Shown: piece after piece, positions 13-36,386 of the stretch
Layout: the number at the start of each line of letters is the position of its first letter
Numbering within the stretch: position 1 is the stretch's first letter
Source: Eledone cirrhosa
Taxonomy: Eukaryota
Direction: 5' to 3'
Length of the DNA stretch: 64,000 nucleotides
NCBI GenBank assembly: GCA_964016885.1
Contig: OZ024758.1
Location: forward strand, 33,480,001-33,544,000
Program-made: the position numbers and the translations under genes
Notes under the pieces: model-generated
What the model was told of the DNA's origin: nothing
What the model saw: only the letters and a program-made list of their open reading frames with translations
Database searches by the model: none

Positions 13-3000
13 ACTATGCTGTACATTAAATAATGTAGCCTAGGTACACTATGTCTGATAGCCACTATACTGTACATTAGATAATGTAGTCCTAGGTACA
101 CTACGTCTGATAGCCACTATACTGTACATTAGATAATGTCGTCCTTGGTACACTATGTCTGATAGCCACTATACTGTACATTAAATAATGTAGCCTAGGT
201 ACACTATGTCTGGTAGCCACTATACTGTACATTAGACAATGTAGTCCTAGGTACACTATGGTGATAGCCACTATACTGTACATTAGATAATGTAGTCCTA
301 GGTACATTATGGTGATAGCCACTATACTGTACATTAGATAATGTAGTTCTAGGTACACTATGTCTGACAGCCACTATACTGTACATTAGATAATGTAGTC
401 CTAGGTACACTATGTCTGACAGCCACTATACTGTACATTAGATAATGTAGTCCTAGGTACACCATGGTGATAGCCACTATACTGTACATTAGATAATGTA
501 GTCCTAGGTACACTACGTCTGATAGCCACTATACTGTACATTAGATAATGTAGTGCTAGGTACACTATGTCTGATAGCCACTATACTGTACATTATATAA
601 TGTAGTCCTAGATACACTATGTCTGAGAGCCACTATACTGTACATTATATAATGTAGTCCTAGGTACACTATGTCTGACAGCCAGTATACTGTACATTAT
701 ATAATGTAGTCCTAGATACACTATGTCTGAGAGCCACTATACTGTACATTATATAATGTAGTCCTAGGTACACTATGTGTGATAGCCACTATACTGTACA
801 TTAGATAATGTAGTCCTAGGTACACTACGTCTGATAGCCACTATACTGTACATTAGATAATGTCGTCCTTGGTACACTATGTCTGATAGCCACTATACTG
901 TACATTAAGTAATGTAGCCTAGGTACACTATGTCTGATAGCCACTATACTGTAGATTGTATAATGTAGTCCTAGATACACTATATCTGAGAGCCACTAAA
1001 CTGTACATTAGATAATGTAGTCCTAGGTACATTATGTCTGATAGCCACTATACTGTACATTAGATAATGTAGTCCTAGATACACTATGTCTGATAGGCAC
1101 TATACTGTACATTATATAATGTAGTCCTAGATGCACTATGTCAGATAGCTACTATACTGTACATTAGATAATGTAGTTCTAGGTACAATATGTCTCATAG
1201 CCACTATACTGTACGTTAGACAATGTAGTCCTAGGTACACTATGACTGATAGCCACTATACTGTACATTAGATAATGTAGTCCTAGGTACACTATGGTGA
1301 TAGCTACTATACTGTACATTACATAATGTAGTCCTAGGTACATTATGTCTGGTAGCCACCATACTGTACATTAGATAATGTAGCCCGAGATACACTATGT
1401 CTGATAGCCTCTATACTGTACATTAGATAATGTAGTCCTAGATACACTATGTTTGACAGCCACTATACTGTACATTATATAATGTAGTCCTAGATACACT
1501 ATATCTGAGAGCCACTAAACTGTACATTAGATAATGTAGTTCTAGGTACAATATGTCTGATAGCCACTATACTGTACATTAGACAATGTAGTCCTAGGTA
1601 CACTATGACTGATAGCCACTATACTGTACATTAGATAATGTAGTCCTAGGTACACTATGGTGATAGCCACTATACTGTACATTAGATAATGTAGTCCTAG
1701 GTACATTATGTCTGGTAGCCACTATACTGTACATTAGATAATGTAGCCCGAGATACACTATGTCTGATAGCCTCTATACTGTACATTAGATAATGTAGTC
1801 CTAGATACACTATGTCTGATAGCCACTATACTGTACATTAGATAATGTAGTCCTAGGTACACTATGTCTGACAGCCACTATACTGTACATTAGATAATGT
1901 AGTCCTAGGTACACTATGTCTGATAGCCACTATACTGTACATTATATAATGTAGTCCTAGATACACTATGTCTGAGAGCCACTATACTGTACATTATATA
2001 ATGTAGTCCTAGGTACACTATGTGTGATAGCCACTATACTGTACATTAGATAATGTAGTCCTAGGTACACTACGTCTGATAGCCACTATACTGTACATTA
2101 GATAATTTCGTCCTTGGTACACTATGTCTGATAGCCACTATACTGTACATTAAATAATGTAGCCTAGGTACACTATGTCTGATAGCCACTATACTGTACA
2201 TTATATAATGTAGTCCTAGATACACTATATCTGAGAGCCACTAAACTGTACATTAAATAATGTAGTCCTAGGTACATTATGTCTGATAGCCACTATACTG
2301 TACATTATATAATGTAGTCCTAGATGCACTATGTCAGATAGCTACTATACTGTACATTAGATAATGTAGTCCTAGGTACACTATGTCTGATAGACACTAT
2401 ACTGTACATTAGATAATGTAATCCTAGATACACTATGTCTGATAGCCACTATACTTTACATTAGACAATGTAGTCCTAGGTACACTATGTCTAATAGCTA
2501 CTATACTGTACATTAGATAATGTAATCCTAGATACACTATGTCTGATAGCCACTATACTGTACATTAGACAATGTAGTCCTAGGTACACTATGACTGATA
2601 GCCACTATACTGTACATTAGATAATGTAGTCCTAGGTACACTATGGTGAGAGCCACTATACTGTACATTAGATAATGTAGTCCTAGGTACATTATGTCTG
2701 GTAGCCACTATACTGTACATTAGATAATGTAGCCCGAGATACACTATGTCTGATAGCCTCTATACTGTACATTAGATAACGTAGTCCTAGATACACTATG
2801 TCTGATAGCCACTATACTGTATATTAGATAATGTAGTCCTACGTACACTATGTCTGACAGCCACTATACTGTACATTCGATAATGTAGTCCTAGGTACAC
2901 TATGTCTGACAGCCACTATACTGTACATTAGATAATGTAGTCCTAGATACACTATGTCTGAGAGCCACTATACTGTACATTATATAATGTAGTCCTAGGT

Positions 3001-6000
3001 ACACTATGTGTGATAGCCACTATACTGTACATTAGATAATGTAGTCCTAGGTACATTATGTCTGATAGCCACTATACTGTACATTAGATAATGTAGTCCT
3101 AGGTACATTATGTCTGATAGCCTCTATACTGTACATTAGATAATGTAGCCCGAGATACACTATGTCTGATAGCCACTATACTGTACGTTAGATAATGTAG
3201 TCCTAGGTACACTATGTCTGATAGCCTCTATACTGTACATTAGATAATATAGTGCTAGGTACACTATGTCTGATAGCCACTATACTGAACATTAGATAAT
3301 GTAGTCCTAGGTACACTATGTCTGATAGCCACTATACTGTACATTATATAATGTAGTCCTAGGTACACTATGTCTGATAGCGACTATACTGTACATTATA
3401 TAATGTAGTCCTAGGTACACTATGTCTGATAGCCACTATACTGTACATTATATAATGTCGTCCTTGGTACACTATGTCTGATAGCCACTATACTGTACAT
3501 TAAATAATGTAGCCTAGGTACACTATGTCTGATAGCCACTATACTGTACATTATATAATGTAGTCCTAGATACACTATGTCTGATAGCCACTATACTGTA
3601 CATTAGATAATGTCGTCCTTGGTACACTATGTCTGATAGCCACTATACTGTACATTAAATAATGTAGCCTAGGTACACTATGTCTGATAGCCACTATACT
3701 GTACATTATATAATGTAGTCCTAGATACACTATATCTGAGAGCCACTAAACTGTACATTAGATAATGTAGTCCTAGGTACATATGTCTTATAGCCACTAT
3801 ACTGTACATTAAATAATGTAGCCTAGGTACACTATGTCTGATAGCCACTATACTGTACATTAGATAATGTAGTCCTAGGTACATTATGTCTGATAGCCAC
3901 TATACTGTACATTAGATAATGTAGTCCTAGGTACACTACGTCTGATAGCCACTATACTGTACATTAGATAATGTCGTCCTTGGTACACTATGTCTGATAG
4001 CCACTATACTGTACATTAAATAATGTAGCCTAGGTACACTATGTCTGGTAGCCTCTATACTGTACATTAGACAATGTAGTCCTAGGTACACTATGGTGAT
4101 AGCCACTATACTGTACATTAGATAATGTAGTCCTAGGTACATTATGGTGATAGCCACTATACTGTACATTAGATAATGTAGTTCTAGGTACACTATGTCT
4201 GACAGCCACTATACTGTACATTAGATAATGTAGTCCTAGGTACACTATGTCTGACAGCCACTATACTGTACATTAGATAATGTAGTCCTAGGTACACCAT
4301 GGTGATAGCCACTATACTGTACATTAGATAATGTAGTCCTAGGTACACTACGTCTGATAGCCACTATACTGTACATTAGATAATGTAGTGCTAGGTACAC
4401 TATGTCTGATATCCACTATACTGTACATTATATAATGTAGTCCTAGATACACTATGTCTGAGAGCCACTATACTGTACATTATATAATGTAGTCCTAGGT
4501 ACACTATGTCTGACAGCCACTATACTGTACATTATATAATGTAGTCCTAGATACACTATGTCTGAGAGCCACTATACTGTACATTATATAATGTAGTCCT
4601 AGGTACACTATGTGTGATAGCCACTATACTGTACATTAGATAATGTAGTCCTAGGTACACTACGTCTGATAGCCACTATACTGTACATTAGATAATGTCG
4701 TCCTTGGTACACTATGTCTGATAGCCACTATACTGTACATTAAGTAATGTAGCCTAGGTACACTATGTCTGATAGCCACTATACTGTAGATTGTATAATG
4801 TAGTCCTAGATACACTATATCTGAGAGCCACTAAACTGTACATTAGATAATGTAGTCCTAGGTACATTATGTCTGATAGCCACTATACTGTACATTAGAT
4901 AATGTAGTCCTAGATACACTATGTCTGATAGGCACTATACTGTACATTATATAATGTAGTCCTAGATGCACTATGTCAGATAGCTACTATACTGTACATT
5001 AGATAATGTAGTTCTAGGTACAATATGTCTCATAGCCACTATACTGTACGTTAGACAATGTAGTCCTAGGTACACTATGACTGATAGCCACTATACTGTA
5101 CATTAGATAATGTAGTCCTAGGTACACTATGGTGATAGCTACTATACTGTACATTACATAATGTAGTCCTAGGTACATTATGTCTGGTAGCCACCATACT
5201 GTACATTAGATAATGTAGCCCGAGATACACTATGTCTGATAGCCTCTATACTGTACATTAGATAATGTAGTCCTAGATACACTATGTTTGACAGCCACTA
5301 TACTGTACATTATATAATGTAGTCCTAGATACACTATATCTGAGAGCCACTAAACTGTACATTAGATAATGTAGTTCTAGGTACAATATGTCTGATAGCC
5401 ACTATACTGTACATTAGACAATGCAGTCCTAGGTACACTATGACTGATAGCCACTATACTGTACATTAGATAATGTAGTCCTAGGTACACTATGGTGATA
5501 GCCACTATACTGTACATTAGATAATGTAGTCCTAGGTACATTATGTCTGGTAGCCACTATACTGTACATTAGATAATGTAGCCCGAGATACACTATGTCT
5601 GATAGCCTCTATACTGTACATTAGATAATGTAGTCCTAGATACACTATGTCTGATAGCCACTATACTGTACATTAGATAATGTAGTCCTAGGTACACTAT
5701 GTCTGACAGCCACTATACTGTACATTAGATAATGTAGTCCTAGGTACACTATGTCTGATAGCCACTATACTGTACATTATATAATGTAGTCCTAGATACA
5801 CTATGTCTGAGAGCCACTATACTGTACATTATATAATGTAGTCCTAGGTACACTATGTGTGATAGCCACTATACTGTACATTAGATAATGTAGTCCTAGG
5901 TACACTACGTCTGATAGCCACTATACTGTACATTAGATAATGTCGTCCTTGGTACACTATGTCTGATAGCCACTATACTGTACATTAAATAATGTAGCCT

Positions 6001-9000
6001 AGGTACACTATGTCTGATAGCCACTATACTGTACATTATATAATGTAGTCCTAGATACACTATATCTGAGAGCCACTAAACTGTACATTAAATAATGTAG
6101 TCCTAGGTACATTATGTCTGATAGCCACTATACTGTACATTAGATAATGTAGTCCTAGATACACTATGTCTGATAGGCACTATACTGTACATTATATAAT
6201 GTAGTCCTAGATGCACTATGTCAGATAGCTACTATACTGTACATTAGATAATGTAGTCCTAGGTACACTATGTCTGATAGACACTATACTGTACATTAGA
6301 TAATGTAATCCTAGATACACTATGTCTGATAGCCACTATACTGTACATTAGACAATGTAGTCCTAGGTACACTATGTCTAATAGCTACTATACTGTACAT
6401 TAGATAATGTAATCCTAGATACACTATGTCTGATAGCCACTATACTGTACATTAGACATTGTAGTCCTAGGTACACTATGTCTGAGAGCCACTATACTGT
6501 ACATTATATAATGTAGTCCTAGGTACACTATGTGTGATAGCCACTATACTGTACATTAGATAATGTAGTCCTAGGTACATTATGTCTGATAGCCACTATA
6601 CTGTACATTAGATAATGTAGTCCTAGGTACACTATGTCTGACAGCCACTATACTGTACATTAGATAATGTAGTCCTAGGTACACTATGGTGATAGCCACT
6701 ATACTGTACATTAGATAATGTAGTCCTAGGTACACTATGGTGATAGCCACTATACTGTACATTAGATAATGTAGTCCTAGGTACATTATGTCTGGTAGCC
6801 ACTATACTGTACATTAGATAATGTAGCCCGAGATACACTATGTCTGATAGCCTCTATACTGTACATTAGATAATGTAGTCCTAGATACACTATGTCTGAT
6901 AGCCACTATACTGTACATTATATAATGTAGTCCTAGATACACTATGTCTGAGAGCCACTATACTGTACATTATATAATGTAGTCCTAGGTACACTATGTG
7001 TGATAGCCACTATACTGTACATTAGATAATGTAGTCCTAGGTACACTACGTCTGATAGCCACTATACTGTACATTAGATAATGTCGTCCTTGGTACACTA
7101 TGTCTGACAGCCACTATACTGTACATTAAATAATGTAGCCTAGGTACACTATGTCTGATAGCCACTATACTGTACATTATATAATGTAGTCCTAGATACA
7201 CTATATCTGAGAGCCACTAAACTGTACATTAAATAATGTAGTCCTAGGTACATTATGTCTGATAGCCACTATACTGTACATTAGATAATGTAGTCCTAGA
7301 TACACTATGTCTGATAGGCACTATACTGTACATTATATAATGTAGTCCTAGATGCACTATGTCAGATAGCTACTATACTGTACATTAGATAATGTAGTCC
7401 TAGGTACACTATGTCTGATAGACACTATACTGTACATTAGATAATGTAATCCTAGATACACTATGTCTGATAGCCACTATACTGTACATTAGACAATGTA
7501 GTCCTAGGTACACTATGTCTAATAGCTACTATACTGTACATTAGATAATGTAATCCTAGATACACTATGTCTGATAGCCACTATACTGTACATTAGACAA
7601 TGTAGTCCTAGGTACACTATGTCTGAGAGCCACTATACTGTACATCATATAATGTAGTCCTAGGTACACTATGTGTGATAGCCACTATACTGTACATTAG
7701 ATAATGTAGTCCTAGGTACATTATGTCTGATAGCCACTATACTGTACATTAGATAATGTAGTCCTAGGTACACTATGTCTGACAGCCACTATACTGTACA
7801 TTAGATAATGTAGTCCTAGGTACACTATGGTGATAGCCACTATACTGTACATTAGATAATGTAGTCCTAGGTACATTATGTCTGATAGCCACTATACTGT
7901 ATATTAGATAATGTAGTCCTAGGTACACTATGGTGACAGCCACTATACTGTACATTAGATAATGTAGTCCTAGGTACATTATGTCTGATAGCCACTATAC
8001 TGTACATTAGATAATGTAGTCCTAGGTACATTATGTCTGGTAGCCACTATACTGTACATTAGATAATGTACTTCTAGATACACCATGTCTGATAGCCTCT
8101 ATATTGTACATTAAATAATGTTGTCCTAGATACACTATGTCTGATAGCTACTATACTCTATATTATATAATGTAGTCCTAGGTACACTATGTGTGATAGC
8201 CACTATACTGTACATTAAATAATGTAGCCTAGGTACACTATGTCTGATAGCCACTATACTGTACATTATATAATGTAGTCCTAGGTACACTATGTCTGAT
8301 AGCCTCTATACTGTACATTAGATAATGTAGTCCTAGATACACTATGTCTGATAGGCGCTATACTGTACATTATATAATGTAGTCCTAGATGCACTATGTC
8401 AGATAGCTACTATACTGTACATTAGATAATGTAGTTCTAGGTACAATATGTCTCATAGCCACTATACTGTACATTAGACAATGTAGTCCTAGGTACACTA
8501 TGACTGATAGCCACTATACTGTACATTGGATAATGTAGTCCTAGGTACACTATGGTGATAGCCACTATACTGTACATTAGATAATGTAGTCCTAGGTACA
8601 TTATGTCTGGTAGCCACTATACTGTACATTAGATAATGTAGCCCGAGATACACTATGTCTGATAGCCTCTATACTGTACATTAGATAATGTAGTCCTAGA
8701 TACACTATGTCTGATAGCTACTATACTGTACATTAGATTATGTAGTCCTAGATACACTATGTCTGATAGCTACTATACTGTACATTAGATAATGTAGTCC
8801 TAGATACACTATGTCTGATAGCCACTATACTGTACATTAGATAATGTAGTCCTAGGTACACTATGTCTGATAGCCACTATACTGTACATTAGATAATGTA
8901 GTCTTAGGTACACTACGTCTGATAGCCACTATACTGTACATTAGATAATGTAGTCCTTGGTACACTATGTCTGATAGCCACTATACTGTACATTAAATAA

Positions 9001-9775
9001 TGTAGCCTAGGTACACTGTCTGATAGCCACTATACTGTACATTATATAATGTAGTCCTAGATACACTATATCTGAGAGCCACTAAACTGTACATTAGATA
9101 ATGTAGTCCTAGGTACATTATGTCTGATAGCCACTATACTGTACATTAGATAATGTAGTCCTAGATACACTATGTCTGATAGGCACTATACTGTACATTA
9201 TATAATGTAGTCCTAGATACACTATGTCAGATAGCTACTATACTGTACAATAGATAATGTAGTTCTAGGTACAATATGTCTGATAGCCACTATACTGTAC
9301 ATTAGACAATGTAGTCCTAGGTACACTTTGACTGATAGCCACTATACTGTACATTAGATAATGTAGTCCTAGGTACACTATGGTGATAGCCACTATACTG
9401 TACATTAGATAATGTAGTCCTAGGTACACTATGACTGATAGCCACTATACTGTACATTAGATAATGTAGTCCTAGGTACACTATGTCTGATAGCCAATAT
9501 ACTGTACATTAGATAATGTAGTCCTAGGTACACTATGTCTGATAGCCACTATACTGTACATTAGATAATGTAGTCCTAGGTACACTATGTCTGATAGCCA
9601 CTATACTGTACATTAGATAATGTAGTCCTACATACACTATGTCTGATAGCCACTATACTGTACATTATATAATGTAGTACTAGGTACACTATGTCTGATA
9701 GCCACTATACTGTACATTAGATAATGTAGTCCTAGGTACACTATGTCTGATAGCCACTATACTGTACATTAGATA
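13..9775. repeat. 52-bp tandem satellite array (~188 monomers), consensus GTAGTCCTAGGTACACTATGTCTGATAGCCACTATACTGTACATTAGATAAT
   Basis: Head-to-tail 52-bp units (51-bp variants GTAGCCTAGG, ATGGTGATAG) read directly, with no spacers. The first ~12 nt of the window do not match the consensus. The array ends at ...ACATTAGATA (9775). Confidence 0.98.
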
Positions 9776-13476: not shown

Positions 13477-14256
13477 TCTATATATATAAAACTGTGGTTG
13501 TCTGTCTGTCTATCGAATTTTGGCACACATCTCCTCTTAGAATCTCTCACGGAATTGCACCGAAATTGCTATACTTGTACATTGAGCCCTAGCGAAGACA
13601 TCGGAAAAAAAAAATTTCAAATTGACCCACCCTATGTGACGAAATCGAATATAATGTATCGATTTTTGAGCGTAAGTTATCAGTTATTTCCCTTTGCTCT
13701 GTTTACATTGAGCGTCTTACGTAAAAAATTACGCTGGCTTTCTCAGCGTTTAAAATGACATTAACACAATACACGAACAGATCAGTTCGAACACTAAGCT
13801 TCCGTTTTGCTTCATTTCCATTTAAAAGCATTTTAAAACAATATTTTTACTTGAAAACAAGTCTATTTAAAGACTACGTAAAACAAGCAAATATTTCAGG
13901 CGTGCAGACAGACAGTCGTGCAGAGAGGTGATATAGGCGTGCAGACAGACATAACTGATAATTTGGTTACGCTAATGTTTTTCTCTGCGTTGCAGTGTTT
14001 ACATTTTCGATCTTTGTTAATAAATAACCAGTGCAGTTTTTATCCCCAGCATCCTCTTTTGTTATAACATTCGGGTTATCGTTATGTTTTCTTAACTTCA
14101 TAAGGCATATTGTTGGTTGAGGGAATATTAATCAAAAACACCACATGCAAGTCTGCACAGTAGACACTACAGTTTTTAAGCCAAAAAAGAAACTTAACAT
14201 TGTAACTTTAACACAGCTACTGAGCGACCCCGAGCAACGCCGGGCTTTACTGCTAG
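13477..14256 (+). mobile_element. Non-autonomous Helitron, 780 bp
   Basis: Starts TCTATATATATAAAA and ends CTAG, with subterminal GC hairpin CCCG(A)GC-AAC-GCCGGG at 14229-14244. Inserted between A and T without TSD. Empty sites GCCAA|TTATC at 25729|25730 and 32277|32278. Confidence 0.93.
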
Positions 14257-14910
14257 TTATCTATGTATAACAAGATATGAATTTTTCTAGGGATGGGGAA
14301 ATTTTCAGTTTGTTTTTATATTTTCACTTCATTTTTTACTTTCTATTTAATACAGTCTTTGATCCAATATAATCCTGACAGTATTTGAACCAGTTTACCT
14401 CATATCTGTTAGAACACGAAAAGTGTGAAACAACAAAATGTTTACTTTTCGTGTTCTATCGTGTTCTAACATATATGCCTAACTTCTTCATAAATTTTCC
14501 CGGGATAGCCGTGGTGGTGGTGATCGTATGTCATTGGCTAATTTTCAACCAATCAGAGTAAGTGTTGATATATATATATATATATATATATACTATTCCC
14601 CCTCTCTCTATATATATCTTACGCTTTCGCTTTACACTCCTCCCCTTCAATAACACATTTCCCCCTCTCTATATATCTCTTCCACTGTTACTTACGCCTG
14701 TTTCTCTCTATCTGTTCCGTCTCTATATATATCTCTCTTACTCTTTCGCTTTGCACTCCTCCCCTTCAATACCATCTCCCCCCCTCTCTATATATTTGTT
14801 ACTCTATCGCTGCACGCTCCTCTCCTTCAATATATATTATTACACACGCTTTACACTCCTTTATCCCCAGCGCCCCTATATATACACCCCCCCCTCCCGC
14901 ATCTATATCT

Positions 14911-14955
14911 TTGCCTTTCATCTTTACGGGATCGATAAAATAAAGTACCAGTAAT
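14911..14955 (+). mobile_element. SINE 3' fragment (also ~34810-34853)
   Basis: TTGCCTTTCATC..T.CGGG.TCGATAAAATAAAGTACCAGT. The same tail recurs at ~17795-17833. Confidence 0.6.
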
Positions 14956-15327
14956 ACACTGTCACTATAAGTAGACGACTTTCAAATTGAATTGTTGGTT
15001 CCATTTCTTTAGTATTTTCAATTGTAGTTATCTACTTAAAAAGCGTTACACGGTTAGAGACATAATTGGTAAGTTATATCTTCCCTATTAAACCATTGCA
15101 TTATTTCGCCTACAATAGAACAAAAATTAAATGTTCTTTAAAGAAACAGGAATATAACTTTATAAAAAAAAAAGTTGCATCCGCTTCTTTTATCATTGAT
15201 AATTTTTTCGTTTTAATATTAATTGTTTTTTGTAGTTGTTTATATTAAAAATCTTACTGTAATATTTACTTAAACGAAGGCAGACATCTAAACTTATAGA
15301 TTAATCTTGAGCGAAGGACTAGATAAA

Positions 15328-15412
<85 letters not shown>
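15328..15412. repeat. (CT)n(AT)n microsatellite
   Basis: Direct reading. Shorter allele at ~35227-35280. Confidence 0.95.
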
Positions 15413-15413
<1 letters not shown>

Positions 15414-15416
15414 AAT

Positions 15417-15630
15417 AAACGAAGAATGATAACATTTCAAGCAAAGAGTTTAATTAGGTAATGACTTACAAATTTGTTTCAGTATATATTTAATATAATA
15501 TTAATATATTTTGTAATATTATTAACTAATTATTATAATTAGCGCTTCAGGCTTTGTCTATATACTGAAACAAATTTGTAAGTCATTACCTAATTAAACT
15601 CTTTGCTTGAAATTTTATCACTCTTCGTTT
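15417..15630. repeat. ~72-bp inverted repeat pair around an AT-rich ~70-bp loop (second copy 35284-35497)
   Basis: AAACGAAGAATGATAACATTTCAAGC...CAGTATATA (15417-15488) is the near-perfect reverse complement of 15559-15630. Confidence 0.9.
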
Positions 15631-15822
15631 TGAATTTCTCCTAAGTATTCAATACTCTGTTGAGAAATACATTTTACATAAACAGTCTTTGTACCATTTA
15701 TACGGTATTAATTACTTATATTTATATATATATATATATATAGCGTATGATTAGAACTGTGTTTATTATTAATATTTTAATGGATTTAATGAAAAATTTT
15801 AGGTGTTCATATATATATTCTA

Positions 15823-15881
15823 AAAATGCGCGAAATCGTGAATCCGCGATAGTTGAACCGCCAAGTAGCGAGGTATCACTG
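15823..15881 (+). mobile_element. Tc1/mariner-pogo (Tigger-like) MITE right end
   Basis: CCGCGATAGTTGAACCGCCAAGTAGCGAGGTATCACTG|TA ends ACTG followed by TA, typical of Tigger-like ends. Left end not found. Confidence 0.5.
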
Positions 15882-15909
15882 TATATATGTTTAAATATAT
15901 AGTGTAGCT

Positions 15910-16374
15910 GTGATGTATCTCGCGAGTGAATCGAGACCTGTCACTGATTTTGGTGTCCCCACTGCCGATGTGAATGAGCAACGCTGCACTTGTGAATTGG
16001 GTCTTGATGTTGCAGGCAGTTCATATACTTACAATGATGCGGTCCCACAAGCTTGTTCACATTCCTGTGCTAATAATCTAGATGGGCGTATTAAATTGGA
16101 TGTGAAAACAGCTTACCGGATGCGGAATCGGGAGAAGTTGAGACAAAAACAGGCCGATTATAGAGCTGTGAATTTTGCTAAATTAACACAAAAACAGGCC
16201 AAGTATAGATGTTCAAAACGGTATGAGTTGGCAAACAAGCAGGCCAAGTATAGATCTGCAAATTCAGCTATTATATCTCAAAAGCAAGCCGAGCGTAGAG
16301 CTTCTAAACGTACCGAGTTGGCTAAAGAGCAGACCAAGTACAGATCTGCAAATATCTTATTGCACAAACAATAA
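15910..16374 (+). CDS. 154-aa ORF with ~6 basic 15-aa repeats, probably a transposon protein remnant
   Basis: AYRMRNREKLRQKQ / ADYRAVNFAKLTQKQ / AKYRCSKRYELANKQ / AKYRSANSAIISQKQ / AERRASKRTELAKEQ / TKYRSAN. Non-microsatellite composition. Expression unknown. Confidence 0.4.
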   Translation: MMYLASESRPVTDFGVPTADVNEQRCTCELGLDVAGSSYTYNDAVPQACSHSCANNLDGRIKLDVKTAYRMRNREKLRQKQADYRAVNFAKLTQKQAKYRCSKRYELANKQAKYRSANSAIISQKQAERRASKRTELAKEQTKYRSANILLHKQ

Positions 16375-16585
16375 TTCTGCACAAATGTTGCTCCATTATT
16401 AGATCTAATGTTGCAACGATACAGTTAAATGTTGTCTGTGTATTTTAAAAAAGATTTGCTTATAATCTTTTCAAATTTCATTACGCCAATGATTCAAGCT
16501 CAAATTGACATTATCTAAAAAATTGTACAAACAGCGGTGGATTAGCAGTAGTGAACAGATAAATCAGTCAATTTATTAAGATTGA

Positions 16586-17239
16586 CTTGGCATCAATCAG
16601 CAAGACCTTCATTAGCTGCTCTCCAGCCATCTATTTAAAGCTGTATACATCTATGGTACGAATACACTTGGAGTTCGCGTCATCAGTCTGGAACCTCTAT
16701 CTTGCTCAGAACATTGACCTCCTGGAAACTGTTCAGAGACATGCAACCAAGCGCATACCCTCCATCAGACACCTACCATACCCTGAATATTTTGCTTCCC
16801 TCTGGCAATGGACTTGGTAAACACCCACAAAGTTATTAACCATCCGACCAACAACAACCCCGAACACCTTTTTGATCTCCATGTATCTAACACGTGGACA
16901 TGCCTACAAAGTCAGAAAACAACACAGCTCCCATGACTTTAGGAAATATTTCTTCATGCTCAGAGTTGCTGAAGGATGGAACAAACTTCCTGCATCAGTT
17001 GTTAGCTGATGACAAACTGCATCCTTTAAAACCATCATACATTCCGAAATACACCAAAACTACACCTGATGTCCCCCTTCCATACACATGCACATATGTG
17101 TATATCATGACTCATGCACTGTTCTTTTTTCATGACGTTTTTATATTACCCTATGTATTATATATGCACTTTTGATGAGTTGTAGTGCACCTCAGCATTG
17201 TACACAATATTTTCATTATTATTATCATTATTATTATTA
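16586..17239 (+). mobile_element. 5'-truncated CR1-like LINE 3' end with (ATT)n tail
   Basis: LYTSMVRIHLEFASSVWNLYL..NIDLLETVQRHATKRIP, then TRGHAYKVRK..FRKYFF..RVAEGWNKLPASVV, then an ATT-repeat tail at ~17215-17239. Confidence 0.85.
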
Positions 17240-17709
17240 CACTCATTGATCCATTTTGCACTAACTCTGCATCAAGCACCCTCACCTAAATATTAACCAA
17301 TCAAGGATCCAATACAGCTATCTGTTGGATGAGTATTGTATAGTGCCAAAAACGAAACCAATCAGTTTAGCAGAAAGTTTCCAGACAAGAAACACGCATA
17401 TTTTGCTATCCTCAAACACGTTTACACATGGCATGAAATATAACTAATCCGAGATGGCTAGGTTTCATCTTCTAACTGGATATACGAAATCCATTATGTC
17501 TTGACAACAACATGAGGTAACATTATGTTATTCACAGACACACTTTGTACACTGTTCCATATCAGAATGTATTTCCTTCGTCACATTCACAAACAGTATT
17601 GAAAATATGTTCTTCGGCAAATAAAAATGTTTTGTTCATAATATTTCAACTAGCGATTGCTCTACTCCACGCACGACCACCATAAATTAATGACCAGCTC
17701 AACACAAGT

Positions 17710-17880
17710 ATTGGTAGAGCGTCAGACACCATGCTTTGCAGTATTGTTATGGTCCTTTGCATTCTAAGTTCAAATCCTGCCGAGGTTAACTTCGACTTTC
17801 ATACTTACTAATTCGATAAAATAAAGTACCAGTAATGGACTGCCGTAATGGATTTGTGCCGAAAAATAGAAACACTATTA
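17710..17880 (+). mobile_element. Degenerate tRNA-derived SINE
   Basis: GGTAGAGCGTCAGAC...AGTTCAAATCCTGCCGAGGTTAACTT...TCGATAAAATAAAGTACCAGT. Confidence 0.6.
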
Positions 17881-18432
17881 ATGTGCAATAAGAGCAAAAT
17901 ATAACGACATTGCTCAATTATTTTATCTAATGTTGTAATAACGCAAGGAAATGTTGTTTGTGTATTTTTTTTTTATATTTGCTCATAGGATTTTACAATT
18001 TCGCTCAGCCAACAACTATTAAAAAGTGAGTTGCTTAAGATAACAATTTAATCACAAATTGTTGCTATCTTTTAATACACTCCAACAAGTCATCAAATTA
18101 TGTACAATAAAAACAAATCTTATTAATTTGCTCAGGGAATATAAAGAAAATGTATATACACTGATAATTGCAATTGTATGTAAATATTTTGTTTTTGTAT
18201 TGTTTATTTTATGTTTTCTATTATGTATAATATATTGATTTAATATTGATTGTTTTTTGTAGTTGTTTATATTAAAAGTCTGAAAATATTTTTATACATC
18301 TTACACTAATATTTATAAGATAATTTATAATAACAATTACATAATCTAATTACATTACAACGATAATTTATTATTAATATATATCCTGTTTAACTAGAGT
18401 TATTACAAGCGTTGCCTTAAAAAAATATTAAA

Positions 18433-19387
18433 CTAGACATGAAAAATGCGCAAGCTCAAAAGAGCCACAGAATGTTATAATAAACCTTCAAAAGTGTGGG
18501 ACTAGAGTTGTTGCTAAAAAATATTGTAATCATTATATATCGTACATTCTGTGGCATCCTTTATAAAAATAGCTTAAACCAACGAAGCCTTTATTTTTAC
18601 GCTATTTCACTTAGTTAATTCTTAGAGTGTAACATATAAAAATAAATACATCTATGTTTAATGTAATAACAGCTATAAATAATTACGTAATATTATTATC
18701 ATATACTCATAGTAACAAAATAATTGTGTTGAAAATTAATATGATGCTTATATGAACGATCAAATCTATAATGATAATTTCTTAAATATACTAATAGTAA
18801 AATAATTTAGTTATCTATTGTTACATTTTCATAGAACTATAATATTAACAATCGTATTGCATTATCAAATTTTTATCACTACAAACTTTCATATTGGAAT
18901 TACCTGAAGCCACTTATTATTACTTCGCTTTCGTACTTTTACAGCTGTAGATATTGCGCTGTATCTTATATCTAATATCAATATCTCATGGTAATTTGCA
19001 TGCAGTGTAAAATAGGTTTATTAATAACTTTAATATGAAATGTATTATACAGGGCTGCGGAGTCGGCCAAAAATTGACTGGCTCCAACTCAGGATCCGAT
19101 ACTCCATTATTTCCTAAATTTCAGCTCCGCAGCTCTGTTATTATATTAATTAATTTATTTTATAGTTGTAAATCATATTTTTATATGTTACACTCTAAGA
19201 ATTAACTAAGTGAAATAGCGTAAAAATAAAGGCTTCGTTGGTTTAAGCTATTTTTATAAAGGATGCCACAGAATGTACGATATATAATGATTACAATATT
19301 TTTTAGCAACAACTCTAGTCCCACACTTTTGAAGGTTTATTATAACATTCTGTGGCACTTTTGAGCTTGCGCATTTTTCATGTCTAG
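18433..19387. mobile_element. Foldback/MITE with ~210-bp terminal inverted repeats
   Basis: 18433-~18644 (CTAGACATGAAAAATGCGCAAG...) is almost exactly the reverse complement of ~19176-19387 (...CTTGCGCATTTTTCATGTCTAG). Confidence 0.9.
19050..19137. mobile_element. 88-bp hAT-type MITE nested in the foldback element
   Basis: TIRs CAGGGCTGCGGAG / CTCCGCAGCTCTG. 8-bp TSD GTATTATA / TTATTATA (7 of 8 match). Confidence 0.75.
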
Positions 19388-20547: not shown

Positions 20548-20602
20548 TTAAATGTATAGAACATGTTTCTCTTGTCTTCTTAAATGTATAGAACATGTTT
20601 CT
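20548..20602. repeat. ~23-bp direct duplication TTAAATGTATAGAACATGTTTCT
   Basis: Two copies at 20548 and 20580 (also 27038/27070). Confidence 0.9.
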
Positions 20603-25610: not shown

Positions 25611-27477
25611 ATATGTACACATATACACATACATATATGTACATATATATACACATGCATATATATCAGTGTACATATACATATACATATATATATATAA
25701 ATGAATATTTATTCAATTTAAAGCGCCAATTATCTATATATAACAAGATATGAATTTTTCTAGGGATGGGGAAATTTTCAGTTTGTTTTTATATTTTCAC
25801 TTCATTTTTTACTTTCTATTTAATACAGTCTTTGATCCAATATAATCCTGACAGTATTTGAACCAGTTTACCTCATATATATGTATGCACACACAACACT
25901 CAAGTTTCGCCATCTACTGCTATTTCATTCATATATATTGTTTAATTAACTCTGGTCTAATTCATCAACTATTGTTAATTATATTATTACGTAGATTTCT
26001 TATAAAATCTAGTGCATATATACGTGTATATATACAGGGAGACACTGTAATAGATGTAAAGAGAGTGGGCGATAGAGTTATAGAAGTAAAGAGAGGGAAA
26101 GAAATAAGCGGTAGATAGAGTAATAGATGTAAAGAGAGGGTTAGAACGTTCAACTTGACAGTCAGTACAATGTTCAGCATGGTAGCCAGTACATATGCCA
26201 ACTACCCAACCGGCCAGCCAGCCATATTTGCGGTTGACTGGCCAGTTGGGCGGTTGGTATATGGAACGTTCAACTACGCAGTCAGTACCAAAGTTCAACA
26301 TTGTAGCCAGTGCATATGCCGATCGCCGCGCCCTCTTTGCTCTATTTTAGTGACCTGGAACTAAGTAAAAAGAGTAGGAGATAACTCGACAAGAGCGGAG
26401 AGGGTGAGATTCGAACCATGTAAAGTCGTTGGCTCCTGAAGTTCGTAAGCTGAGCAACGCTGGCAGCAAGGCAAATCGCGCATAAAATAACACTTATATC
26501 GACAAAATAAAACAAAATTTTCAATGTTGCACTCTTGTTTGTTGTTCTTTTATTTTACGTAAACATTTCGCTGCGCTAGCCTCTTATTTCCTATTAGATT
26601 ACACTTAATTCCATTAAACATTCATTCTTAGTCTCGTGGTAAACTATTTCATCTATATTTATATCGCTGTTACAGCCTTTTATTTCTACATCTATCACCT
26701 ATAGCCACTGTTACGCCGGTAGTATAAGTAGCTTTATAACAAGAAACGATGATATAACTCCACAAAATGTGTTCTTGAGCAAGACACTTCACTTCATATT
26801 GCTCCAGTACACCGAGTTACACATAGACAGATACATACATACACATATATATGTACACAGATAGAAATAAGAGGGAGATAGAGTAAAAGATGTAAAGATA
26901 GTGTAAAAGATTTAAAGAGAGGGTGAGAGTGTGACACACATTTATCTGTCTATCTCTCTCTATTTTAACACCGGTCGTTATAATTAGTTTTATAACACCG
27001 CTATATTACCGACATGAAAGAGGTAAATAATTATTTTTTAAATGTATAGAACATGTTTCTCTTGTCTTCTTAAATGTATAGAACATGTTTCTTATTTATA
27101 TTCTTAACATAGCTACGACCTTATCTCATTTACTGGTCTCTACTTTTAGGACTTTGCTGGTCCCATGTGCCCTCCATCAAGACACACTCGTCCCTTCTCT
27201 GAGCCCCCGTACTAATTACTACACATACGTATATATATTTATTTTAAGAAACCTGAATGACAAATAATATAAAGTGTTTGTAAAGTGGGGAAGCGTAGTT
27301 TTACGGTGCAGTTGTTATATAGATATCGTTTTTGCAGTGGGGTTGTGACTGGCGTATAATAATGAGTCACTGTTGATGTATATACAAATCATATTTTGGA
27401 TATAAGTGAAGTTATTTAAGAGATTTAGTTGTTTTGTATACATTCCAGTTGTTGTCTCCCTGTTTCTTCTTCAACAA

Positions 27478-33609: not shown

Positions 33610-36383
<2,774 letters not shown>

Positions 36384-36386
<3 letters not shown>

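Follow-up and report, generated by a model that had tools for sequence, protein, structure and literature searches.

The segment at 14405-19387 of the window, the whole 64,000-nt stretch of Eledone cirrhosa DNA analysed here, is non-autonomous and arose by deletion from a 13-kb Helitron-like element. We consider it probable, at roughly 60%, that it is a deletion copy of a young transposon that combines an HLE2-type transposase with TC...CTRR ends and carries 212 bp of its own tail a second time in inverted orientation, that it likely moves by rolling-circle copy-and-paste through intact partners elsewhere in the genome, and that the long foldback acts as a predicted stop signal.

The original prediction was that excising this segment recreates an empty site without a target-site duplication (TSD). 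Comparison with sister units in the same window confirmed this, as the joined flanks match the sites at 25871 and 32419 exactly. The segment starts with TC and ends with CTAG, and is flanked by A and T with zero duplication. Its features are given in Table 1, together with a second copy in the window.

Table 1. Features of the two copies in the window
Feature	Position	Strand	Remarks
Non-autonomous copy of HLE2-type Helitron family, 4,983 bp, A/TC...CTAG/T, no TSD	14405..19387	+	Empty-site comparison; autonomous partner
5' terminal hairpin	14407..14461	+	Folding: -17 kcal/mol in this copy, -21 in the common type
5' half of short asymmetric inverted repeat	14433-14442		Inside 5' hairpin; one substitution in this copy
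61-bp tandem repeat	14590..14832	+	5' non-coding part
Junction of ~590-bp deletion	14908..14909	.	Private to this copy among copies fetched
Tail of very high-copy SINE-like repeat	14910..14961	+	Read depth and loose ends; presumed label
Imperfect internal palindrome	15417..15630	.	79%
RepHel ORF, first ~147 codons	15913..16353	+	15-aa repeats
Junction of ~7.5-kb internal deletion	16350..16353	.	4-nt microhomology; remainder of RepHel gone
CR1-like LINE 3' piece	16530..17237	+	Approximate boundaries; presumed label
SINE-like insert	17686..17850	+	In same ~1.9-kb block as CR1-like piece
Inner arm	18433..18644	-	Inverted copy of last 212 bp including terminal CTAG; 1 mismatch
Terminal arm	19176..19387	+	No stable short hairpin
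3' half of asymmetric inverted repeat	19344-19353		Within terminal arm
Second copy, independent insertion	33610..36386	+	Ended by 54-bp satellite

The interior had been read as a mosaic of captured cargo. The listed parts are present, but two of them are intrinsic. The ORF with 15-aa repeats is the N-terminus of the RepHel transposase, and the 'foldback MITE' repeats the final 140-220 bp of the element in inverted orientation and is therefore not cargo. A captured MITE should turn up by itself, bordered by a TSD of its own and by varied flanks on either side; instead, the context of the inner arm within the element is fixed. Capture does apply to the SINE and CR1 pieces, which were acquired once, internally, by the master element, and the CR1-like piece belongs to the ~1.9-kb block that is missing from an older subfamily. 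The SINE, Tigger and CR1 labels are presumptive, based on read depth and translation rather than on a repeat-library search.

The family comprises about 670 near-identical copies genome-wide. Counting by exact patterns gave 669 exact 5' ends and 1,357 copies of the 3' 23-mer, 683 of them in the context of the inner arm, a ratio of about 1:1 between terminal and inner occurrences. In a preset test of the 5' end, 30 of 30 loci had exactly the same start, a TC preceded by A, in 29 different flanks. We examined 85 loci, and the 75 complete copies scored all occupy an A/T target without duplication. Flank duplications at 14 nt were no commoner in the copies (8/75) than in controls (7/75), which indicates that there is no TSD. 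Bases +2 to +4 of the 3' flank are G or C in 6 of 225 cases versus 34 of 225 at -2 to -4, the same asymmetry as in the canonical Helitron Helraiser (PMC4778049). No circle or head-to-tail junction was seen among 15 of the 237 sequencing-read joints listed. In such reads, the empty paralogous units produce the same joint as an unoccupied site in another individual would.

These exact-ended copies across the genome refute template switching and a local microhomology-mediated rearrangement, and they argue against hopping within the tandem array, for which a route via an unsampled intermediate keeps a small probability. The two copies, which lie within 20 kb, do share one common substitution and one beside a microsatellite. 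The second has the same 5' 11-mer, in a site between A and T that is empty at 20556/20557 and 27046/27047. Its 5' end is not identical as had been claimed, however: the first 70 bp contain 2 substitutions and differing small duplications. The second copy also retains the ~590 bp lost from the 14405 copy and, over 1,554 columns, shows 11 differences from it, whereas the nearest relative of the 14405 copy, on another contig, shows 5. Since the two copies are not nearest relatives, local hopping of the 14405 copy is not supported, and the description 'locally mobile' is abandoned. On one contig, a 5' end lies no more than 16 kb from 48 of 54 motif clusters, and 2 of 3 re-fetched 'orphans' had one too, which also speaks against a captured MITE. 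We regard a local origin as highly improbable. The remainder of the 33610 copy, which is truncated at the 54-bp satellite, was not found.

Together with the 669 exact 5' ends, intact autonomous partners with the same ends uphold the predicted non-autonomous rolling-circle element. A 13,078-bp element (L062/L163) has the ends of the 14405 copy and 99.6% identity to it across the 3' 3 kb. There are 19 full-length Rep matches at 98-100%; ten were fetched, and all ten begin at the same TC and seven have unbroken frames of 2,230-2,245 aa, giving at least seven autonomous partners with unbroken ORFs. The mean CDS distance among autonomous copies is 0.31%. The transposase is a single ORF with the Pfam domains DUF6570, Helitron_like_N, PIF1 and UCH, and it has the HUH, two-tyrosine, Walker and protease motifs. 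The partner thus carries the HUH, two tyrosines and Pif1 helicase of a Helitron-like RepHel between the ends seen in the window. Pfam searches of the ORF pieces within the window gave no real match, and a genome search with Helitron_like_N recovered mostly canonical RepHels without the partner, which was identified via a fetched family copy.

Phylogenetic analyses (a quick tree and FastTree, midpoint-rooted, with only 4-5 HLE1 rows, all from the E. cirrhosa genome) put a long branch, with support of 100, between the partner RepHel and canonical RepHels and grouped the partner with UCH-bearing proteins. Its similarity to a canonical RepHel (E 4e-15) is about the same as to host Pif1 helicases. 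It falls in the HLE2 clade, outside HLE1, with DUF6570 and (F/Y)xR before motif 2, and lacks the HLE1 RGLPH motif. The AP endonuclease that is fused to RepHel in Helentrons is absent, with UCH in its place. Because the transposase is HLE2, this is not a canonical Helitron. Named matches of the UCH-type HLE2 in other animals include Rhodnius, Aphidius, Cotesia and sponges. Metagenome relatives lie on contigs too short for element ends.

The ends are hybrid. The 5' TC, 3' CTRR and A/T target of canonical HLE1 elements were found in 75/75 copies, and the 3' end varies as CTAG, CTGG and CTGA. The canonical 3' hairpin of 16-20 nt, ~11 nt from the end, is lacking: the last 45 nt fold weakly (-0.5 to -3.3 kcal/mol), although the contrast is modest, as a neighbouring canonical hairpin scores only -5.7. 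In Rfam, the sole match was to a hairpin and fell below threshold. On the RepHel strand, the T/T target and the hairpin after the 3' repeat that are typical of HLE2 (Helitron2/Helentron) are absent too. Two HLE2 traits are present, a 5' hairpin (in all lineages) and a short asymmetric inverted repeat. The repeat is 10 bp in the 14405 family (reached in 6/300 shuffles) and 13 bp in a sister family, and is not significant in the older subfamily (72/300 and 140/300 shuffles).

The hairpin and repeat at the TC end also allow the opposite polarity, a Helitron2 with a reversed ORF. The TC end on the bottom strand (short repeat, hairpin, 2 nt) would then be the terminator, the CTRR end the origin, and the foldback an oversized Helitron2 5' hairpin exposing the strand for nicking. 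This layout fits the Helitron2 3' end, where the 3'-ATIR precedes the hairpin at 20-30 bp from the end (PMC3627910); reversed ORFs have been described (PMC3627910, PMC5148889; 'HLE2-reverse', PMC11417382), and the short repeat lies within the foldback. However, the first base of the element would be C or A, while that of described Helitrons is T (PMC3627910), and its short repeat would lie 31-44 nt from the CTRR end rather than 0-2. The end variation is exactly CTRR-like and the flank asymmetry agrees with the TC-to-CTRR polarity, making the reversed reading unlikely.

The foldback is widespread in the family. It is carried by three lineages whose arms have only the last ~45 nt in common. In the sister family (60-63% protein identity to the 14405 family), 20/20 elements start with A/TC and the hairpin, 17/20 reach the 3' motif (CTGG/T in 14, CTAG/T in 2, one variant), and the inner arm is present in 16 of those 17. 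Both arms are kept in 19/20 elements of the older subfamily, mostly 1.0-1.2 kb long, and in minimal derivatives that have lost all else, the span shrinking from 955 to ~440 bp. Four subfamily-specific changes occur in both arms, so the arms change together between subfamilies. In young copies, the arms are non-identical in 29/58, with a private change in both arms in one copy; private mutations are thus nearly always in one arm, and arm copying is rare. The foldback continues beyond CTAG by 8 nt in 3 copies and by 1-3 nt in another 41, a signal too weak to use.

The foldback could instead be a by-product, generated at the 3' end through fold-back synthesis or through self-insertion in antisense orientation; occasional conversion would keep the arms similar, and movement would not depend on them, with the element and its HLE2 transposase as described. 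Single copies without the inner arm exist (L057, L224 and the autonomous C3a), the inner arm resembles the element end followed by T, and self-insertion has been proposed for FoHelis (PMC5148889). Retention need not mean strict need either, as Helraiser without its 3' end retains 6-9% transposition (PMC4778049). Nevertheless, the presence of the foldback in three such divergent lineages and the survival of both arms in minimal derivatives make a by-product rather improbable. We favor a stop signal. By analogy with Helraiser, the transposase would nick at A^TC, and the top strand would be peeled off and cut at CTRR^T; the circle would be closed and then inserted at a TA-rich A/T site. On release, the terminal arm may pair with the inner arm, the stem base falling exactly at the terminal CTAG. 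The stem would pause the enzyme in place of the canonical 16-20-nt hairpin, and occasional copying between paired arms may maintain their similarity.

Helitron classes are defined by pairing a transposase clade with an end structure. We tentatively suggest, while leaning slightly against so broad a claim, an undescribed animal HLE2 lineage whose TC...CTRR/A-T ends are independent of those of the oomycete proto-Helentron, and in which a self-renewing foldback of the 3' end, of kilobase span, serves as a cis signal for transposition; its intact young copies would be the first such system assayable as found. The sole known mismatch of clade and ends, the proto-Helentron, is reported from Phytophthora only, and HELIANO found none comparable in 404 genomes (PMC11417382). 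Seeing the mismatch again, now in an animal and in a different HLE2 lineage, is relevant to the question of whether TC...CTRR ends are ancestral or were swapped. Annotation tools tied to one class will mis-bound such hybrid-ended elements. The HLE2 literature consulted reports no test of the start/stop mechanism, and it can be tested with the natural copies, which differ by 0.3% and have whole ORFs with a deubiquitinase domain predicted to be active. Such long inverted repeats, over 1,000 of them in a single genome, probably also promote rearrangement and give rise to double-stranded RNA.

The closest precedent is the Phytophthora proto-Helentron (Thomas et al. 2014, PMC4067079; HELIANO, PMC11417382). 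Both have an HLE2-type RepHel without endonuclease, 3' CTAG, an A/T target without TSD, a 5' stem-loop and short inverted repeats (PMC4067079). The proto-Helentron starts with TT rather than TC and resides in an oomycete rather than an animal (PMC4067079), and its Rep motif is EFQxRGSPH, versus EYQxRGAPH plus a C-terminal UCH here, which at the level of the motif indicates a different RepHel subgroup. Its descriptions, as consulted, do not mention a long terminal foldback (PMC4067079, PMC11417382). HLE2 subgroups c/d likewise have DUF6570, Rep, Pif1 and UCH in one ORF; HLE2 is described as T/T-inserting with a 3' stem-loop, unlike our family, in an account that gives no description of c/d ends (HELIANO, PMC11417382). 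Fusarium FoHeli3-5 ('HLE2-reverse') share the 5' hairpin, the lack of a 3' hairpin and a short repeat set 20-40 bp in from the 3' end, but are fungal, with TGCCT...CTCCTGT ends and, as described, no known target preference (PMC5148889). Lepidopteran Hel-2 non-autonomous Helitrons are animal elements that also have TC/CTAG ends, a 5' inverted repeat and subterminal repeats, but they are ~250-350 bp long with a 3' hairpin, and their description mentions no linked transposase partner (PMC4344730). Canonical HLE1 Helitrons such as Helraiser share TC...CTRR, A/T insertion without TSD and an AT-richer 3' flank (PMC4778049); the E. cirrhosa family differs from them in its distant transposase and in having a long foldback where they have a short 3' hairpin.

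The 14405 element is a genuine mobile element and, as a lone insertion, ordinary. As the original prediction stated, excising it recreates precisely the vacant site of both sister units, and the sequence at 33610 is another copy, in an A|T site that is vacant at 20556 and 27046. A joint skipping the 4,983 bases also occurs in a contig and in reads from other samples, as expected because the vacant units give it. The 54-bp satellite truncates the 33610 copy with 2 nt overlap, and 12/12 stretches sampled as far as ~600 kb past the window still consist of it. Within the host unit, one segment is repetitive in its own right: it has 663 candidates, of which many stand in 6-20-kb tandem arrays close to contig ends. 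A distinct canonical non-autonomous Helitron of 780 bp lies 148 bp upstream of the 14405 element, with A|TC at its start, a GC-rich hairpin and CTAG|T at its end, and a site vacant in sister units; a relative is nested, on contig C20, within a copy of the large element.

Positions of the repeats and Helitron copies within the window
Feature	Position	Strand	Description
52-bp satellite	13-9775		tandem repeat
~6.5-kb unit			three and a half copies
780-bp Helitron	13477-14256		canonical, non-autonomous
14405 element	14405-19387	+	4,983 bp, non-autonomous, TC...CTAG
Inner arm of foldback	18433-18644		inverted copy of last 212 bp
Terminal arm of foldback	19176-19387		last 212 bp
Repeated host-unit segment	20590-20990		
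33610 copy	33610-36386	+	cut off by 54-bp satellite
54-bp satellite	36385 onward		

Copies have a fixed start, which the original prediction said would support mobility: 30/30 loci open at the identical TC following an A. Exact matches in this 3.0-Gb animal genome number 669 for the 5' end and 1,357 for the 3' 23-mer, 683 of the latter in inner-arm context. Among 39 fetched copies, the exact end lies inside 9.5 kb in 34, the last base varies in 3, 1 is interrupted and 1 is longer. On one contig, surveyed over its first 182 Mb, a correctly oriented 5' end accompanies 48 of 54 3' clusters, and usual sizes are ~3.5 and 5.6 kb. All 75 complete copies (85 loci examined) sit at A|T in TA-rich sites with no duplication, and divergence from the majority is 0.4% (34 copies, 1,554 columns). 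The nearest relative of the 14405 copy is on contig C4 (5 differences); the 33610 copy shows 11 differences and retains 590 bp missing from it. Because copies are genome-wide and the 33610 copy is not the nearest relative and keeps these 590 bp, the window is better explained by a TA-rich unit that received two insertions independently than by the local hop first suggested. A paralogous tandem array on contig C20 (L032/L070, about 3.23-3.25 Mb) holds a copy that shares the 14405 element's 5' flank and 5' variant and differs in body haplotype and 3' flank; it is likely a product of ectopic recombination between two copies. Sequencing-run contigs labelled as a second organism carry the element with few differences, which may reflect a close relative or transfer.

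The longer copy (L062+L163) spans 13,078 bp; it has the ends of the 14405 element and also sits in A|T. The ORF with 15-aa repeats, previously read as cargo, is the N-terminus of its RepHel transposase, and the short form arose from such an element by a ~7.5-kb deletion with 4 nt microhomology. The Rep region has 19 matches at 98-100%. Ten autonomous copies were fetched, with the 5' end in 10/10, the exact 3' end in 9/10 and an uninterrupted frame of 2,230-2,245 aa in 7/10. They contain HUH, tyrosine, Walker and protease Cys/His motifs, and their mean CDS distance is 0.31%; from these intact frames, motifs and low distance we infer present-day activity. A UCH/USP-type protease domain at the RepHel C-terminus (L180 and other autonomous copies) has its Cys box intact in 10/10 and likewise in sister families, and changed in L062. 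It is predicted to be an active deubiquitinase fused to the transposase.

Pfam identifies DUF6570, Helitron_like_N, PIF1 and UCH in RepHel. According to HELIANO (PMC11417382), DUF6570 marks HLE2 and UCH occurs in HLE2 subgroups c and d. We built midpoint-rooted trees, without named references, from 153 Rep cores (FastTree) and 32 (quick IQ-TREE). Canonical RepHels of the same genome (five and four, respectively) split off by a long, fully supported branch, and both trees group the family's transposase with relatives that bear UCH and away from the Helentrons that bear an endonuclease. The Helraiser match is only 4e-15. Judged by domains and trees, the transposase is HLE2. HLE2 elements are described as inserting in T|T with a 3' stem-loop, whereas this family has TC...CTRR ends and an A|T target. 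A canonical RepHel fragment recurs at ~100-kb spacing on contigs C19, C20, C27 and C16 (L133-L160), which suggests that it travels inside a very large repeated unit.

In all three lineages the final 140-220 bp, together with the CTRR, occur a second time in inverted orientation 0.4-1.1 kb upstream: in 46/54 clusters of the window family, 16/17 sister-family members and 19/20 of the older subfamily (740 motif matches; minimal members 1.0-1.2 kb). Four older-subfamily marker changes occur in both arms. Among young copies the arms are identical in 29/58, and one carries a private change in both. This retention and the shared marker changes indicate that the foldback is intrinsic and slowly homogenised, and not a captured MITE. 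The ~1.9-kb block upstream of it, inside the element, holds pieces that we take to be CR1-like and SINE-like; it is common to autonomous copies and missing from the older-subfamily copy r86. It was acquired once, internally, not through 3' read-through. The cargo-capture reading holds only in part: the ORF and foldback belong to the element itself.

The sister family is 60-63% identical in Rep, and its 5' end has 458 exact matches. It starts with A|TC-hairpin in 20/20 and ends in CTGG|T, CTAG|T or CTGA|T; a C-G/G-C swap in the stem of this hairpin separates its two subtypes. On contig C1, members of one subtype often carry more than one 5' end (two or three, spaced at 250-1,200 bp). Small tandem duplications gather at the 5' hairpin base in 11/51 copies (window 14455-14475 and others), and the loop is inverted in some sister-family copies; these two observations point tentatively to hairpin formation in vivo. 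A short inverted repeat pairs 5'-end positions 25-38 with 3'-end positions -44 to -31, over 13 bp in the sister family (0/300 shuffles reach it) and 10 bp in the window family (6/300); in the older subfamily it is not significant by shuffling. As originally noted for the window element, the 3' hairpin is missing: the last 45 nt contain no stable one in any of the three lineages.

In Helraiser (PMC4778049), a short 3' hairpin is the terminator. By analogy, the transposase would nick at A^TC, strand displacement would proceed and pause, a cut at CTRR^T would give a circle, and the circle would insert at A|T. Because folding prediction for the last kilobase has the inner arm paired to the terminal CTAG and to the flanking T, we consider that the foldback probably takes the terminator role (roughly 60%). 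The element could instead be a Helitron2 read backwards, with a reversed ORF and the foldback marking the origin (PMC3627910 and PMC5148889); the 5'-T rule, the CTRR pattern at the end and the flank asymmetry speak against this, and we regard it as unlikely. That the foldback is a neutral by-product seems somewhat less likely still. No circle junction appeared among the 15 joints listed of 237.

We found no account of an HLE2 transposase with TC...CTRR/A|T ends, or of a long terminal foldback, among the literature matches listed or in the papers named here; Repbase/Dfam, subscription papers and figure-only supplements lay outside this search, so earlier annotation is possible. The passages covered from PMC11934779, PMC13282606, PMC13085455 and PMC8788227 contain neither. 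Proto-Helentron, with an HLE2 protein, TT...CTAG ends and A|T, is reported from Phytophthora only, and HELIANO found nothing resembling it in 404 species (PMC11417382). One octopus species has 5 HLE2 in that source's table, with no end descriptions in the matches listed. Since the proto-Helentron Rep motif is of the EFQxRGSPH type, our family is likely, by motif type, a separate lineage. FoHeli3-5 have a similar hairpin and repeat geometry but different termini (PMC5148889), and lepidopteran Hel-2 combines TC/CTAG with subterminal repeats but keeps a 3' hairpin (PMC4344730). The window family is apparently a variant not described before: its transposase and ends do not match, its long terminal foldback is conserved, and its young partners are intact.
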